Under the pieces are notes generated by a model. It was not told the origin of the DNA. It did no database searches and saw nothing but the letters and a program-made list of their open reading frames with translations. Shown here in pieces: positions 13,721-57,391 of a stretch of 64,000 nt of DNA. Each line of letters starts with the position of its first letter. Positions within the stretch are counted from its first letter, which is position 1. The DNA is taken from contig CAZKRD010000002.1 in NCBI GenBank assembly GCA_964555185.1, positions 120,438-184,437 on the forward strand, written 5' to 3'. A program made the translations under genes and the position numbers. The stretch is from an uncultured Candidatus Saccharibacteria bacterium. GTDB taxonomy: Bacteria; Patescibacteriota; JAQUNI01.

Positions 13721-13827
13721 ACTGGCTATTTAATGTCAAATTTCAAAATCCAAATGACCAAAATTTGGCATTTGACATTTAGATTTGATTTGACATTTAT
13801 CATTTGAAATTTGAAATTTATTAACGG

Positions 13828-17334: not shown

Positions 17335-17458
17335 TTAGTTCAAAGTTTAAAGTTCAAAATTCAAAGTTTAGTTCAAAATTCAAAGTTTTTAGTTTCACAA
17401 CTTTAAACTTTTGACTGTAATTTTTAACTTTTCACTTTGTACTTTGAACTGTTGAATT

Positions 17459-27308: not shown

Positions 27309-27470
27309 TTTTTTAGGGATATAATTTTTAATTTCTAATTTTTAATTCTTAATCAATGTTTAATTTTTAATGATTTAATTTTTAAACAAGATAAGTTAGA
27401 AACAATAGAATGTTTAAAAATTAAAGCATTAAAAATTGATTAAAAACTAAAAATTAAGAATTAAAAATTG

Positions 27471-31603: not shown

Positions 31604-31778
31604 GAGTAGTTAATTTTCAATTTTCAAGTACCAATGTACTAATCAATTTTCAATTTACAAGTACCAATTTTCAATCAATTTTCAATAACCAATGACTAAA
31701 TGTTCAAACTGTTTGAAAATTAAATCATTGAACCTTAGGATTTGATTGAAAATTGAGATTTGTAAATTGAAAATTAAT
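31604..31778. repeat. MITE-like AT-rich intergenic repeat, copy B
   Basis: About 125 bp are ~95% identical to copy C and form an inverted match to copy A. It lies between the rmlC stop and the NUDIX start. Confidence 0.7.
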
Positions 31779-31784
31779 ATCCTC

Positions 31785-32240
31785 TTATCCCATCTTAATC
31801 CCCCAACCATACGGAACCAGTTCAGTATCATAAGGCAGGCGGTATTCATCTGGTTTCTCTGGATTGTAGGGATGGGTTGGCGTATTGATGATTAGAGCTT
31901 CTTCTTCGGACACGCATTTCCAGCCGTGATAAACCTGTTTTGGGATTTGAATTAAACTCGGATTGTGCTCGCCGATAAAAAATTCATTGATTTCTCCCAA
32001 AGTCCGGGATCCGATCCTGCCGTCATAGAGGACAAGCTTGATCATGCCGCGCAGGCAGCAAATAGAATCGGTTTGGACTTTATGCAGATGCCAAGCCTTA
32101 ACCACGGAAGGGTAAGTGGTCGTTAAATAGACTTGACCGAATTTCTCGAAGATTTCATCATCAGAGCGCAGGATCTCCATCACCCGGCCCCGTTCGTCAG
32201 GATGAATTTTAAGTTTTTTAGTTTTGACGCCGGAAATCAT
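31785..32240 (-). CDS. rmlC: dTDP-4-dehydrorhamnose 3,5-epimerase-family cupin (short form)
   Basis: 151 aa. ...AWHLHKVQTDSICCLRGMIKLVLYD... is an RmlC-like cupin core. Confidence 0.6.
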   Translation of the reverse strand: MISGVKTKKLKIHPDERGRVMEILRSDDEIFEKFGQVYLTTTYPSVVKAWHLHKVQTDSICCLRGMIKLVLYDGRIGSRTLGEINEFFIGEHNPSLIQIPKQVYHGWKCVSEEEALIINTPTHPYNPEKPDEYRLPYDTELVPYGWGIKMG

Positions 32241-33411
32241 GATATTTAAAAGATTTAAGAAGGGCTTTAGGATTTTTCGTTTCCACCCCGCCTTTTTTTA
32301 GAAGTAAAGTCTGGTAGAGCCTTATTGTCTGATTTGCAACTTTATTCCAATTATAGAACTTGCGGACTCTTTCGCGAGCCAGCCGCCCCATTTTGAGAAC
32401 CAGTTCGGGGTGGTCATTTAGAAATTCCAGTCCCTTTTTAAGGCTCGCTACACTCCTTGACTTAAAGCTATAACCCGCTTCGCCCATCGCTTCTTTGTTT
32501 TCCGGAATATCTGAAACTAAAACACAACGGCCAAAACCCAAGGCCTCAAGCAGACTTAAAGACAGGCCCTCTGCTTTTGATGGTAGCACATAAAGGTAAG
32601 CATTGGAAAATAATTCGAGGAGGGTTTCCCCTTGCTGACTGCCGGTAAAGATAATATTAGGATTGCCTTTTGCTGTTTTTTTAAGATAATTTTCATAGGC
32701 TCGATTGCCAAGATTGCTGCCGCCAACAATAACCAGTTTCTTGTTCGTATTTAATTTTTGGAAAGCATTGATTAAATAGTGAATCCCTTTGCGCGGAACC
32801 AGCCGCGAAACAGTTAGGAAATAATTGTTTTCAGAGAGTCCCCATTTTTTGATTAGTTTTGCCCGCTTGGAACGAGCAAGTGCGGCTCCGTTGGGGATAT
32901 AATAGATTTGACTTTTGGCCGGATTATTTTTTCGGCAGTATTGGTAAAGAATTCTGGAAACAACAATTGTCGCGTCAGGAAGTAAAACCACGGTTTTTTC
33001 AGCCAGAGTTAAAAAGAAGCGAGCGAGGATTCCCCATTTTTGATCAAAACAGTCGCGGCACTGAAAAGTTGTGATTGTGACTGCTTTCCTCTTTAGGATC
33101 CGAGGAATAAAAGCAAGCAGAGAAGGGCCCACCGAATGGATATGGACAACATCCACTCTTTTAAACAAAACATGAATAAGAGAGAAAAAAGTATGGGTAA
33201 TCGTGTCTAAATTCTTTGTGGGAATCGAAGGGGTATAGATTATATCGATTCCTTTGTATTTTTTTCTTTTGCTTTTGGTGTATTTATGCCGAGAGTAAAC
33301 AAAAATTCTGTGTCCTCTTTGGACCAGTTTTTTGGCTAATTCTTCAACATGCCGCTCTACTCCGCCTTCGCGGCAGGGAATCCCTTTTGCTCCAATTATC
33401 GCTATTTTCAT
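32218..33411 (-). CDS. Glycosyltransferase family 1
   Basis: C-terminal GT-B motif ...VLPSKAEGLSLSLLEALGFGRCVLVSD.... Confidence 0.7.
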   Translation of the reverse strand: MKIAIIGAKGIPCREGGVERHVEELAKKLVQRGHRIFVYSRHKYTKSKRKKYKGIDIIYTPSIPTKNLDTITHTFFSLIHVLFKRVDVVHIHSVGPSLLAFIPRILKRKAVTITTFQCRDCFDQKWGILARFFLTLAEKTVVLLPDATIVVSRILYQYCRKNNPAKSQIYYIPNGAALARSKRAKLIKKWGLSENNYFLTVSRLVPRKGIHYLINAFQKLNTNKKLVIVGGSNLGNRAYENYLKKTAKGNPNIIFTGSQQGETLLELFSNAYLYVLPSKAEGLSLSLLEALGFGRCVLVSDIPENKEAMGEAGYSFKSRSVASLKKGLEFLNDHPELVLKMGRLARERVRKFYNWNKVANQTIRLYQTLLLKKGGVETKNPKALLKSFKYHDFRRQN

Positions 33412-33550
33412 TGGCTTTTAAGCAGTGTTTAAATAAGTTGATATTATAGAACTATAATTAATAAAAGTCAAGAAAAGGTGTCATTGCGGGCGACTCCACA
33501 CCTTTTTTGAAAAAAGGCGTGGAAGAGCGCGGCAATCTCGTGAAATACAA

Positions 33551-34765
33551 TCAAATTATTAATAGTTTTTTATAGACTTTCGTTAATTTTTTATAATAAG
33601 CTTCTGGGTCGTATTTTTTAATTTCTGCCTTTGCTCTTTGCCCTATTTTTTGGGTCAATTTTGGATTGTGAAAGAGGTATTGGATTTTTTTTCTTAATTC
33701 ATCTCGATTTTCAAAAAGCAGACCGTCTTTCCCTTGTTCAATCAGTTCAGGCAGAGCTCCTCTCGCGCTTGCGACTACGGTTTTTCCTAAATTGAATGCC
33801 TCTAGAACAGCAAGGCCAAAAGTTTCTTCGCTCATGCTGGGTACAACCACAAAACAAGAATTCGCAATCAGTTTTTTTAATTCTTTTTCGTTTTTAAAAC
33901 CCAAAAATTCTACATTAGAAATATTTTTCTGGGCAACCGTCTTGATTAACCTATTTTTGTCTGGACCTTTGCCCGCTATTTTGAATTTAATCCAAGGGAG
34001 CTCTAAAGCTGTCGAAATTAAAAGATCCAGTCCCTTTTCCGAGGCAAGCCGGCCAAAATAGAGAACATAATCTTTTTTTCTATTTTGGGCCGCTATTTTT
34101 GCTGGCTTTATAAAATGCGGCAGGACAATTAATTTGTTTTCTGACATTCCCCAGGCAGTTAGTTTGTTTTTTACAAATTGACTGGGACAGATAAAAATAT
34201 CGACATATTTCTGATAAAAACAAAAAGTTTTGTGGAGATACATCTCGAGTGAACTTAGAAGGGAGGCAAAATAAGAATCTTTGACGCATTTATTTAAAAA
34301 GCATTGATAGTATTTATGTTGTTTGCATTTCTCGCAAACCTGACCTTTGTTAAATAATTTGTAATTTGGACAAATCAATTTGTAGTCATGGACAGTCATC
34401 ACAATCGGAATATTATTCTTTTTTAAAATTCCTAAAATAGAGGGTGAAATCTGATGATAGATATTGTGGATATGAGCAATGCCTGGTTTTTCTTTTTTGA
34501 TTAATTTTTTAATTTTTTTGCGTGCTTCTAGAGAATAAAGGATTCGGGCTGCGTTTTTTAGAGCTTTTAGAGAGAATCTAACTCTTTTTAAATTCATTTC
34601 ACTGACAAAATATTCTTGATAGGCAGATGAAATATTTTTTTTACCTTCCATTGCAAAAGGAATCACAGTGTGGCCGCGCGCTTCTAGTAATTCTGTTAAA
34701 TCAAAATAATGACGGTCTGATCCGCCCTGGATGTGATGGAATTTATTGATATTCAAGATGATCAT
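33551..34765 (-). CDS. Glycosyltransferase family 1
   Basis: ...VVVPSMSEETFGLAVLEAFNLGKTVVAS... (EX7E-like). Confidence 0.7.
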   Translation of the reverse strand: MIILNINKFHHIQGGSDRHYFDLTELLEARGHTVIPFAMEGKKNISSAYQEYFVSEMNLKRVRFSLKALKNAARILYSLEARKKIKKLIKKEKPGIAHIHNIYHQISPSILGILKKNNIPIVMTVHDYKLICPNYKLFNKGQVCEKCKQHKYYQCFLNKCVKDSYFASLLSSLEMYLHKTFCFYQKYVDIFICPSQFVKNKLTAWGMSENKLIVLPHFIKPAKIAAQNRKKDYVLYFGRLASEKGLDLLISTALELPWIKFKIAGKGPDKNRLIKTVAQKNISNVEFLGFKNEKELKKLIANSCFVVVPSMSEETFGLAVLEAFNLGKTVVASARGALPELIEQGKDGLLFENRDELRKKIQYLFHNPKLTQKIGQRAKAEIKKYDPEAYYKKLTKVYKKLLII

Positions 34766-38311: not shown

Positions 38312-38337
38312 TTTTCGTTCACTCCTTCTTTATCATT

Positions 38338-38374
38338 GTCATTGCTTCGCTTGTTGTCACTCGCTCGCAATGAC
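38338..38374. repeat. Short inverted-repeat element GTCATTGCTTCG...TCACTCGCT...CGCAATGAC, copy 1
   Basis: It shares the terminal 9-bp inverted repeats and an internal TCACTCGCT with the element at 55040..55095. Confidence 0.5.
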
Positions 38375-38387
38375 AGATCGACATGTT

Positions 38388-38603
38388 TCAGCAGGGGTCT
38401 TCTTCAGCTTCCAGCTTTTCCAGTATTCTTATTTGATTATCTTCCAGGCGGTTCGAAGCTCTCTTCAAATACTGAAGATCAGCCTCGAGATTGCTCGATT
38501 TTCCTCCTCCAAAGCAACAGTAGACTCCGCATCCGGAGAACAGAAGCAAAGCGATTAAGATCAAGCAGATTGCTGCAATTCTCGTTTTCATTACCAACAA
38601 CAC
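38388..38603 (-). CDS. Small lipoprotein with a coiled-coil tail
   Basis: Signal peptide plus lipobox LLFSGC. 71 aa. Confidence 0.3.
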   Translation of the reverse strand: MLLVMKTRIAAICLILIALLLFSGCGVYCCFGGGKSSNLEADLQYLKRASNRLEDNQIRILEKLEAEEDPC

Positions 38604-39403
38604 CTCCTTTCCAGTTTCTGTGACGGGATATAAGCCATTTTGACCAAGATCCGATTTTCATCCTGGTCAACATCAATCCTTCCAGTCTGCAAGTTTTTCT
38701 CTTTGTGCCTCACCCGCGCCCAAGAAACCTCTACGAAACTATTCTTTCGCATCAGTTTCAGATAAAGTCCTGCTTGGGGCCGGTAGGTCCCCTTATAATT
38801 CCGGTTATGATAGTGAACCCAGATAAACTGCGGTCCAATTTCAACAACCTTGTGGGGAGTCAATCCTATTCGCACAACAGCTTCATTATAGACGCTGTCA
38901 AGTCTCAAACCCCTTAATCTTCCAAGATCAGAGGTTGAATAGGCAGCTTCTACAACTACTGGTTTTTGCCTAAAACCCATTTGAGCAGCGAAACGATTTG
39001 AACTGAAGTCCAGGTTATGTTTCGTCTTAACCTCATCCCAGATAAGGATATGAAACCATTTCCAGTAAGAAAAGGCTTCTAGATTAAGATTGTAACCTAG
39101 CAGTTCTTCGCCCTTTCCTTCTTGCAGGCTCTGGGCGCTCCAATACTCATAATCGATTCTTTGCCACATCACTCCGCCATCCAGATTAAGTCTGAGTGGG
39201 ATTTTCCATGGTCGCTTTGTAGCAATACCTATGGCCACGGTGTCCTCGTTGAGGAAATTGTGGGCTACCCCAATCTCCAGCTGCGCTAGATCAGTGAGAG
39301 GAATAGCAACACCTATATTACAAGCAGCTTCATTTTCTTCTGCCTGCGTCGTTAGTCCAGTTAACAAGAACATTATTGCTGTAATAATCAAACATTTTCT
39401 CAT
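38591..39403 (-). CDS. Secreted beta-rich protein, possibly a beta-barrel, in the GC-rich island
   Basis: Signal peptide. Alternating hydrophobic dyads (LEIGVAHNF, VVVEAAYST, LYLKLMRK, ILVKMAYIP). C-terminal aromatic residue (W). Confidence 0.35.
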   Translation of the reverse strand: MRKCLIITAIMFLLTGLTTQAEENEAACNIGVAIPLTDLAQLEIGVAHNFLNEDTVAIGIATKRPWKIPLRLNLDGGVMWQRIDYEYWSAQSLQEGKGEELLGYNLNLEAFSYWKWFHILIWDEVKTKHNLDFSSNRFAAQMGFRQKPVVVEAAYSTSDLGRLRGLRLDSVYNEAVVRIGLTPHKVVEIGPQFIWVHYHNRNYKGTYRPQAGLYLKLMRKNSFVEVSWARVRHKEKNLQTGRIDVDQDENRILVKMAYIPSQKLERRCCW

Positions 39404-39613
39404 CCTTTACCTCCGTTTCGTTGATTTTAGATATCTTAAACTGTTAACTCGCCATTATATATAATTACCCTCACCTTTTGAGAGAACCACCTGCTTTGGT
39501 ACGCATCCCTCTCTAGAAAATTTTCGAAATTCGTTTTCTAGAAAGCGGGACAAGTGATTCCCCAAAAAGTGAAGGCAATTATTTTTTTGGAAAAGAACGA
39601 AATATATTAAAAC

Positions 39614-53005: not shown

Positions 53006-53152
53006 GGGGAAATTGTTCTAATTATTTTAATTATTCTAATTGACCTAAACAAACCCCAATGACCAAATCCTAATGACCTAAATGTTTGAATGGTTTTTTA
53101 AAGATTGGGATTTCTGACATTGTTTAGAATCATTAGAACAATTAGAATAATT

Positions 53153-54064: not shown

Positions 54065-54157
54065 AACTTTAATGCAAAAATCAAAATGTAATTCAGAATG
54101 TAAAAATAATTTTGCATTTTACATTTTCATTTTGACCTTTGCATTTTGATTTTTGCA

Positions 54158-54985
54158 TTATTTCTGGCATTTTGAACAAAAGTGGGCTGATCTATTATTG
54201 ATTTTGATCCGTTTAATCGTTGTTTTGCATTTTTTACAAGGGTCTCCTGTCCGGTGATAGACCCTAAGGTGCAGTTGGTGCTTTCCCTTCTTGCCATAAG
54301 CTTCGCGGTACCACTGATCAGAAGTGCCGTGGTGCTTGATCGCCTCGCGCAATACTTTTTTGATTGCTCGATAGAGACTTTGTAATTTTGCAGGCGGGAT
54401 TTTACCAGTCGGGGTTTCGGGATGGATCTTGGCCAGAAACAGCGCTTCGTCAGAATAGATATTGCCGATCCCGCTTATTTTAGCTTGATCAAGAAGCAGG
54501 GTTTTGATTTTTGCGGTTTTCCCTTTGAGGATTTCTTTGAATTTTTGAAAGGTGAATTTAGGCTCCAGAGGATCAGGCCCTAGTTTTTGAATCTTGCCGA
54601 AATCTTTTTCTAACTCCTTTTTAGGGAGAAGCCAGATTTGGCCGAATTTGCGCAGATCATTAAAACGTAGTTCGCAAAGTTTCCCTAAAGAGAACTTAGC
54701 ATGATTATATTTATCCGGCAGATCAGAGGGCTTTCGGATAAAGAGCTGACCGGTCAGCCGTAAATGAATGGCGAGGATTAGTCCGCCTGATAATTCCAAG
54801 AGGATAATTTTTCCCTTTCTTCTAACCTTAATGATTTTTTGATTCTGAATTGTTTGTTGAAATTTTTTCAAGCTATGCCCGACCAGCATTTTGGGCGTGT
54901 CTGAAGAAAAGGCGGTAATCGTTTTGCCGCGGATCCCTCTTTGGAGTTGTCTTACGATGGTTTCGACTTCAGGGAGTTCAGGCAT
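54158..54985 (-). CDS. mutM: Formamidopyrimidine-DNA glycosylase
   Basis: MPELPEVE N-terminus (catalytic Pro2) and C-terminal zinc finger CKKCKTTIKRI...SAHFCSKCQ. I moved the start to this Met. The track ORF is 25 codons longer. Confidence 0.75.
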   Translation of the reverse strand: MPELPEVETIVRQLQRGIRGKTITAFSSDTPKMLVGHSLKKFQQTIQNQKIIKVRRKGKIILLELSGGLILAIHLRLTGQLFIRKPSDLPDKYNHAKFSLGKLCELRFNDLRKFGQIWLLPKKELEKDFGKIQKLGPDPLEPKFTFQKFKEILKGKTAKIKTLLLDQAKISGIGNIYSDEALFLAKIHPETPTGKIPPAKLQSLYRAIKKVLREAIKHHGTSDQWYREAYGKKGKHQLHLRVYHRTGDPCKKCKTTIKRIKINNRSAHFCSKCQK

Positions 54986-55039
54986 AATATCAGTTAAAAG
55001 TGCAAAGTGAAAAGTTACAGCGCGAGCTGTCATTGCTTC

Positions 55040-55095
55040 GTCGCCTCTCGCTCGTTTCACTCGCTTGAGACTCCTCGCAATGACAAATTGAAATT
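55040..55095. repeat. Short inverted-repeat element GTCATTGCTTCG...TCACTCGCT...CGCAATGAC, copy 2
   Basis: The terminal inverted repeats GTCATTGC/GCAATGAC and the internal motifs are shared with 38338..38374. It lies ~55 bp upstream of the fpg start. Confidence 0.5.
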
Positions 55096-55151
55096 TGTCA
55101 CCTTGAACTTTGCCTGCCTGCCGAAGCCTTGGCGTAGGCAGGAATTTTGAA

Positions 55152-57029: not shown

Positions 57030-57145
57030 AGTAGCATTTTTTAATTTCCAATTTCCAATTCTCAATTTCCAATGAATTTTTAATGTTTAAATTTTCAATA
57101 ACAATAAAATGTTTAAAAATTCATTCATTAAAAATTGAATCAAAA

Positions 57146-57391
57146 TTAAGAATTAAGAATTAATTTATCGATTTTCTCCCGATCAAATCCTAAAATAACT
57201 TCTTCTTTCTTGCCTTTTTCAATAAGGGTTACGGGTACGCCCATTTGGCCTGATTTCTGGATCATTTCTTCTGCCGCCTTCTGATCTGCGGCAATATTAA
57301 TCTCTTGAAATTCGATTTTATTTTGCTTCAAGTACTCTTTTAACAGAACGCAGTGGGGACAGACAGGCGTGGAGTAAATTTTAATTGTCAT
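57146..57391 (-). CDS. Glutaredoxin/NrdH-like redoxin
   Basis: CPHC active site in a thioredoxin fold. 81 aa. Confidence 0.7.
   Translation of the reverse strand: MTIKIYSTPVCPHCVLLKEYLKQNKIEFQEINIAADQKAAEEMIQKSGQMGVPVTLIEKGKKEEVILGFDREKIDKLILNS

Follow-up and report, generated by a model that had tools for sequence, protein, structure and literature searches.

Copies of a dispersed palindromic repeat, very probably a CGTC-tagged REP, differ between close relatives in a Patescibacteria lineage

Palindromic repeats between genes of a polysaccharide-synthesis region

We analysed a stretch of 64,000 nucleotides (the window) of a 355 kb metagenome scaffold. The window is mostly a polysaccharide-synthesis cluster, with three radical-SAM genes. 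Nearly all of its genes are on the minus strand, yet the plus-strand GC skew is positive over most of its length, contrary to the way in which skew normally follows gene strand.

Two short palindromes lie on the minus strand, which is also the strand of their flanking genes. Copy A (38337..38375) is located between a 71-aa ORF, whose stop codon at 38388 is 12 nt away, and a gene for a 405-aa lipoprotein (ATG 38311), and reads TGTC-ATTGC-GA-GCGAGTGACAACAAGC-GAA-GCAAT-GACA. Copy B (55028..55085), located between rtcB (stop 55152) and fpg (ATG 54985), has the same ends around a longer central hairpin and reads TGTC-ATTGC-GA-GGAGTCTCAAGCGAGTGAAACGAGCGAGAGGCGAC-GAA-GCAAT-GACA. Both are singlets, and each is flanked by two co-directional genes and is thus also downstream of one gene. 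The shared ends are longer than the arms suggest and asymmetric on the minus strand (GTCATTGCGAG...CGAAGCAATGAC, likewise given as TGTCATTGCGAG...CGAAGCAATGACA), and the arms are 21 nt apart in one of the two copies and 40 nt apart in the other. A search with GTCATTGC-N(10-40)-GCAATGAC returned two matches in the window and none in 100 dinucleotide-preserving shuffles; the resemblance between A and B is far above chance.

Both of these sequences had been noticed in a first-pass annotation, and the strings that it quoted are present in the window exactly as written, the first at 38338-38374 as reported and the second at 55029-55084 rather than at 55040-55095, which is 11 too high. The terminal inverted repeats that it described as 9 bp long are exact over 8 nt and in each copy reach 9 bp only when the flanking T/A is included (TGTCATTGC/GCAATGACA), while the internal TCACTCGCT that it considered common to the two was indeed found in both. 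Their GC-richness was also confirmed (51% and 55%, compared to 39% for the window). As to position, the annotation had placed both copies 27-55 bp upstream of a start codon; they do lie upstream of one, at measured distances of 26 nt (ATG 38311) and 43 nt, not 55 (fpg). The emphasis on this upstream position was misleading, as the element follows the ends of the upstream genes at least as well.

Using a wider pattern, we found a diverged copy C on the plus strand (33479..33539), which reads TGTC-ATTGC-GGG..CCACACCTTTTTTGAAAAAAGGCGTGG..CGCG-GCAAT-CTC. This copy lies 11 nt past the stop codon of the upstream of two glycosyltransferase genes (33551-34765, minus) and before the next one (32218-33411), and it is antisense to both. 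Its GCAATCTCGTG tail is shared with a copy in a related genome (L135:1138-1171). The ATTGC...GCAAT stem and the TGTC tag are present in all three window copies; the tail is GAC in two of them, the singlets A and B, where it pairs with the tag, and CTC in one. A fourth copy, TGTCATTGCGAGCGACCCCGAGTTTATTGAGGGGGAGCGAAGCAATCTC, is located between convergent genes ~0.5 kb past the window end (~64510-64558 in window-equivalent coordinates; L140:8952-9000). Four copies are thus found in ~84 kb of the scaffold, and 4/4 are intergenic. Open reading frames run over the plus strand of two of the repeats (38336-38623 and 55007-55150), with peptides containing '...SLARNDR...' and '...ETPRNDK...', respectively. 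These 'LARNDR' and 'PRNDK' peptides are spurious: they are translation artefacts of the repeat, not genes.

Turnover of the repeat between close relatives

Next, we compared these sites to those of related genomes, which were found by homologue search and contig look-ups. The nearest named homologues of Fpg are from Patescibacteria. A metagenome scan for Fpg relatives recovered only proteins that were 30-38% identical, which were of no use for scoring presence or absence. At the rtcB-fpg site, copy B of the window is absent from the relative L129 (Fpg 93% identical), where the difference amounts to an indel of ~59 nt, and the neighbouring CCTGCC... hairpin is retained. At the site between the 71-aa ORF and the lipoprotein gene, L134/L135 (lipoprotein 77% identical) are without copy A. 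The opposite was observed in the next intergenic region further up, between a wzz-like gene and a 270-aa gene, which is empty in the window and carries TGTCATTGCGAGGAGCCCGAAGGGCGACGAAGCAATCTCG in L134/L135. Indel junctions in the relatives are blurred by divergence, and no target-site duplication was visible at the three polymorphic sites, where the junctions have diverged. No parent insertion sequence with the same ends was seen, although terminal inverted ends themselves are present. Given these three differences, recent gain or loss of the element has taken place at dispersed sites within this lineage of Patescibacteria.

Two further features of these intergenic regions are worth recording. 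Where the relatives carry the repeat between the wzz-like gene and the 270-aa gene, the window reads ATAATGGCGAG (39404-39470, minus), matching ATAATG[TCATT]GCGAG of the relatives, and this could be a decayed remnant, a footprint, or a chance match. In the same interval, a non-coding block of ~95 nt (39477-39571, minus) is almost identical in L134/L135, even though the lipoprotein encoded nearby is just 77% identical. This block, which is single-copy in the window, folds as one long hairpin (-43.7 kcal/mol; z -5.4) and had only weak, miRNA-precursor-like noise matches in Rfam. As a candidate, it may serve the polysaccharide cluster either as a regulatory RNA or as a palindrome to which a protein binds.

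The second hairpin that the first-pass annotation had reported near the 55-kb copy is likewise real. This GC-rich hairpin, CCTGCCTGCCGAAGCCTTGGCGTAGGCAGG (55113-55142; 67% GC), lies 9 nt past the rtcB stop codon and is retained with few substitutions in L129. Since L129 is without the repeat at this site, the hairpin is an element separate from it, possibly a stem-loop of the rtcB 3' end or a member of another repeat family.

Unit structure, distribution and family of the repeat

To describe the repeat beyond this lineage, we scanned one genome per bacterial and archaeal species (596 Gb) for the core TCATTGCGAG-N(5-35)-CGAAGCAATG. The core was found at at least 120 loci in many phyla, compared to a chance expectation of ~34 matches in 596 Gb by our own arithmetic under a uniform-composition model. 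Among the matches listed, hosts include Alphaproteobacteria (Bradyrhizobium, Sphingomonadales, Methylobacterium), Hymenobacter and other Bacteroidota, Chloroflexota (Anaerolineae, Dehalococcoidia), Acidobacteria, Planctomycetota, Nitrospinota, Nitrospirota, Armatimonadota, Gemmatimonadales, Fibrobacterota, Desulfobacterota-type lineages, Melainabacteria and Campylobacteraceae, with Nealsonbacteria and Doudnabacteria as the Patescibacteria hosts; two core matches were in viral contigs. One replicon, pSA1 of Novosphingobium resinovorum (1.76 Mb), carries the core in at least 40 places, and in it a whole pair, including its spacer, recurs ~20 times. On pNL2 of N. aromaticivorans, an annotated pair with exactly this core lies between two co-directional genes. 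A BLAST search for empty sites in related Novosphingobium plasmids found no close relatives, and a full-text literature search for the literal sequence returned unrelated primer matches only. Of the roles that the first-pass annotation had proposed, that of a 'tiny mobile repeat' is the one supported, with the core present in at least 120 genomes of many phyla and at least 40 times in one Novosphingobium replicon, and with presence or absence differing at three sites between close relatives.

The unit can be written as (C/T)GTC - ATTGC - GA - [G...variable hairpin...C] - GAA - GCAAT - tail, with CCA, CTC and GAC as the tails observed. A relaxed search of the 120 loci gave 205 candidates, some of them over-long or spurious, and 203 were counted after a length limit. 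The ATTGC...GCAAT stem of the window copies was also found in these. The tag, at positions left free in the search, was CGTC in 113 copies and TGTC in 68 (181/203; 89%). Tails were GAC in 90 copies, a count inflated by the scan pattern, which demanded GCAATG, followed by CCA (30) and CTC (17); without GAC, CCA is the commonest and CTC the next. A perfect stem of 5-9 bp leads into a GA/GAA internal loop and then into a centre that can be as short as a 3-nt loop or as long as a 30-nt hairpin. The commonest form is the 25-mer TCATTGC-GA-GCGNAGC-GAA-GCAATGA, and a C-GNA-G apex was found in 102/203 copies, while the apices of copies A and B are other than GCGNAGC. In longer forms the centre is replaced by hairpins that differ in sequence and length, and arm spacing across other genomes varies from 9 to ~40 nt. 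These central hairpins fold with a mean of -3.9 kcal/mol, compared to -2.2 for chimeras and -2.1 for shuffles. The GAG/CGAA part is non-palindromic and is conserved on one strand only.

In an alignment of 109 distinct copies, the stem bases were fixed by the search pattern and their invariance is not independent evidence. At positions that the pattern left free, the G before TCATT was conserved in >90% of copies and was preceded by a pyrimidine in 100/109. The base after GAC was a purine in 95/109 and pairs with that pyrimidine (CG 50, TA 25, TG 11). The covariation seen here need not mean that pairing is selected for, as it may stem from tag variants particular to certain lineages.

Copies often occur as pairs. 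In 35 pairs less than 100 nt apart, the tags pointed outward in 28 and inward in 5, and 2 were direct. Most of the tags-outward pairs (21/28) were heterodimers of units of unequal length, typically a 30-mer and a 24-mer, and a homodimer was found in Novosphingobium. Inner ends within pairs read GCAATCCAG or GCAATCTC, not GCAATGAC. Gene context in other genomes was taken from crude ORF calls, by which 79 intergenic copies were distributed between convergent (31), tandem (36; 21 sense and 15 antisense) and divergent (12) genes. The distance to the upstream stop codon was often <50 nt, with copies lying mostly just past gene ends. A different arrangement was seen in a Lentimicrobiaceae MAG (L050:6254-7261), where six REP-like units on alternating strands, 80-290 nt apart, span ~1 kb. 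This cluster contains two kinds of unit, with cores of ~42 and ~59 nt, and is array-like, unlike the usual singlets and pairs.

The family is thus multi-copy and intergenic, lies mostly just past gene ends, often forms inverted pairs with the tags outward, and is present in many phyla. These are characteristics of the CGTC-tagged superfamily of REPs, comprising families CGTC-1 to -4 (Di Nocera, De Gregorio & Rocco, 2013, BMC Genomics 14:522; PMC3733652). As described in that survey, its members have a CGTC tag, often TGTC or CCTC, stems that start with AT and are 8-9 bp long, loops of 4-5 nt with other lengths in some hosts, and a short unpaired tail that is mostly CCA. Inverted dimers with tags outward predominate and direct (head-to-tail) dimers are negligible, with heterodimers in CGTC-2/-3 and homodimers in N. 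aromaticivorans. The repeats are dispersed and intergenic, mainly with convergent or unidirectional genes on either side and close to their 3' ends, in five host phyla, and the survey reports no transposase gene flanked by CGTC repeats (PMC3733652). The tag, the AT-starting stem, the CCA tail, the inverted dimers and the intergenic 3'-end position as described there were all found in the present repeat, and no transposase was found next to the copies examined. The repeat also differs in some respects from that description: its stem is broken by the GA/GAA loop and has a variable centre, so that stem and loop lengths fit loosely, and the window copies are singlets rather than the predominant inverted dimers. 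To read 8-9 stem positions in the 24-mer, one has to include the GA/GAA mismatches. Compared to the host phyla listed in the survey, Patescibacteria, Chloroflexota, Acidobacteriota, Planctomycetota and others are additional.

We are therefore confident, short of certainty, that copies A, B and C are units of a dispersed REP family within the CGTC-tagged superfamily. Within it, the present repeat is likely CGTC-2 of N. aromaticivorans, a likeness drawn from the written description in the survey and not from a consensus; N. aromaticivorans, listed there as a CGTC-2 host, carries the same core. CGTC-3, as back-translated from the 'VIAGLDPAIH' of the same survey (PMC3733652), has CGTC-ATTGC...GCAAT-CCA in common with it. 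This is a known repeat class newly seen in Patescibacteria; it does not act as a dedicated control site of the fpg and lipoprotein genes. The CGTC core is now found in many more phyla than first listed, Patescibacteria among them, and for annotation of the window a false lead is removed, since its hairpins are not a shared fpg/lipoprotein regulator site. The repeat also offers a practical marker of strain-level variation in these populations.

Other known systems resemble the repeat in part. The Neisseria dRS3 / REPIN element (ATTCCCGCGCAGGCGGGAATC), placed in CGTC-1 by Di Nocera et al. (PMC3733652), has the same CGTC-ATT...AAT-CC head and tail and also forms inverted doublets, but its stem (TCCCGC) is perfect and without GA mismatches where the present repeat has TGCGAG. 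The E. coli REP/BIME elements and Pseudomonas REPINs are, like the present repeat, short imperfect palindromes of 20-40 nt that occur as singlets and inverted doublets at gene 3' ends and vary in presence between relatives. GTAG-tagged REPs carry a GT[AG]G tag and are confined to a genus or family, whereas the present repeat carries YGTC and has a core that is nearly identical across phyla; the GT[AG]G tetranucleotide 5' of the hairpin foot, a trait of REPIN-RAYT systems, was not found, its place being taken by YGTC. The apex GCGNAGC of the commonest form is also that of the DNA mini-hairpins d(GCGNAGC)/d(GCGNNAGC) (Hirao and colleagues; PMC13037366), with sheared G.A pairs as a common building block, although those hairpins are a structural motif of phage origins, ssi signals and N4 promoters and not a dispersed repeat family. 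We also considered kink-turns, loop E, the hammerhead core, integron attC sites and dif, which do not fit in the strand lengths of their internal loops or in their conserved sequences.

A proposed mechanism and competing explanations

We propose that the working form of the repeat would be a hairpin of the tagged strand in single-stranded DNA, in which short G-C clamps could stack with tandem G.A mismatches and with a GNA triloop. Three properties point to this form: the conservation of GA/GAA is strand-specific and independent of the direction of transcription, variable arm spacing is tolerated, and half of the copies have a GCGNAGC apex, which is far more stable as DNA than as RNA (PMC13037366). 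Folding with the DNA parameters of ViennaRNA gave almost equal energies for both strands; we suspect that these parameters do not credit sheared G.A pairs or GNA loops, so that this calculation does not tell the two strands apart.

An enzyme supplied in trans would then copy or remove the unit. A RAYT-type HUH/Y1 transposase would be the favoured candidate, with the YGTC tag as a putative counterpart of GTAG. The E. coli and Pseudomonas repeats are mobilised by such enzymes (RAYT/TnpA-REP), for which the presumed substrate is a single-stranded DNA hairpin, as proposed here. We favour this type of enzyme because the Neisseria element ATTCCCGCGCAGGCGGGAATC, whose head and tail match those of the present repeat, relies on a Group 2 RAYT and decays once the RAYT is inactivated (bioRxiv 10.1101/2021.07.10.451892), which makes dRS3 the one CGTC-type repeat known to need a RAYT. 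Copies A and B, as perfect palindromes with GAC tails, look like collapsed inverted pairs that may have kept both of their terminal tags: if a tags-outward pair lost the stretch between its two GCAAT repeats, exactly YGTC...GCAAT-GACR would result.

We searched for a mobilising enzyme near the repeats. Pfam searches found no RAYT (HUH/Y1, PF01797) or other transposase in the 64 kb window, nor was any transposase found in the ~10 kb scaffold flank on one side or on a short contig on the other. Using phmmer with E. coli RayT as a query, we obtained no matches among all ORFs of at least 70 aa in ~1 Mb of repeat-bearing loci and the window. Genes enclosed by two inverted copies at two of these loci (L044, L080) encode no transposase-like protein. 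To our knowledge, no mobilising enzyme has been known for CGTC-tagged REPs since their description in 2013. A bolder version of our proposal is that a single REP family, with a ~20-nt core almost unchanged from Alphaproteobacteria to Patescibacteria, turns over without RAYT and is moved or generated by an enzyme new to REPs. We regard this as a speculative, rather improbable extension. The enzyme would then be a conserved host DNA-processing protein or an unrecognised recombinase, HUH-type or other. If turnover were indeed RAYT-less, the small genomes of Patescibacteria would allow the enzyme to be identified via simple phyletic profiling. Genomes of ~1 Mb, which hold few candidate enzymes, are in any case well suited to a search for whatever moves CGTC repeats.

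Any effects on the host at these loci would, under the mobile-repeat interpretation, be by-products. A stable stem-loop in the polycistronic mRNAs of rtcB/fpg and the lipoprotein operon may slow 3'-5' decay, and translation termination might be perturbed where the stem starts 11-12 nt past a stop codon (copies A and C). E. coli REPs at 11-12 nt past the stop codon can affect translation or termination.

The distance of A and C from the upstream stop codons would also suit an explanation in which the repeat is a cis-acting RNA element selected at these loci, a stem-loop between cistrons whose task would be to stabilise the message upstream of it, to limit read-through, or to govern how fpg and the lipoprotein gene are translated. 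In favour of this, the orientation of A and B is sense, both lie inside apparent operons, their RNA folds better in sense than in antisense (-18.9 vs -13.8 and -27.1 vs -18.7 kcal/mol; z ~-3.2), and PMC3733652 considers REPs as a class to exert their action in transcripts. However, the repeat is absent from the same intergenic regions of close relatives, copy C is antisense to its genes, and tandem copies across genomes show no preference for orientation (21 sense vs 15 antisense). Selection for RNA pairing would also be expected to leave a strand bias in wobble pairs, which we did not observe: G.T pairs numbered 11/203 on the tagged strand vs 15/196 on the complement, and by position the counts were TG 11 vs CA 7 at the first flanking pair and 15 vs 13 at the next. 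The genes neighbouring the copies are unrelated. No intrinsic terminator (a GC-rich hairpin followed by a T/U tract) was found at A or B on the gene strand, and Rfam 15 gave no gathering-score match in the whole window, with only noise (E 0.2-9) around A and B. The better folding of the sense RNA is accounted for by purine-rich mismatches and G.U pairs, and may matter as a by-product. We consider it unlikely that an RNA function explains why the repeat exists, and the 'structured RNA leader' of the first-pass annotation is not supported in that sense either, given the antisense copy C and the lack of an orientation preference elsewhere, of a wobble-pair strand bias, and of an Rfam match.

Alternatively, the repeat could be an immobile landing pad or recombination site, kept because it is recognised by site-specific elements (IS110/IS1111-type insertion sequences, phage integrases) or by a DNA-processing enzyme of the host, with copies arising via local duplication or gene conversion. 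REPs are documented as insertion targets (PMC3733652), no transposase has been tied to CGTC repeats except in Neisseria, and conservation of the core across phyla would suit recognition by a conserved host factor. Nevertheless, no insertion sequence or integrase adjoins any copy examined, and the three sites that differ between relatives need dispersed gain or loss, not local duplication. We therefore give this explanation only a slim chance. Finally, an operator was also among the first-pass proposals. In the form of a palindrome to which a dimeric regulator binds as duplex DNA, so as to control fpg together with the lipoprotein gene, it would suit inverted arms that are perfect over 8-9 bp and precede two start codons by 26-43 nt, but it is scarcely credible given an arm spacing of 21 vs 40 nt here and 9 to ~40 nt in other genomes, a non-palindromic GAG/CGAA conserved on one strand only, sites missing in close relatives, the same sequence beside unrelated genes in many phyla, and promoter-like matches near the copies at chance level only.

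The repeat is not the only palindromic sequence in the window. Long AT-rich inverted repeats with arms of 18-68 nt are found in many intergenic regions (13738-13819, 17337-17416, 27330-27469, 31642-31778, 53020-53152, 54070-54160 and 57050-57161), and several have AATTTCYAATT-type words in common. Either a second family of palindromes, rich in AT, or a set of terminators that work in both directions may be represented here.
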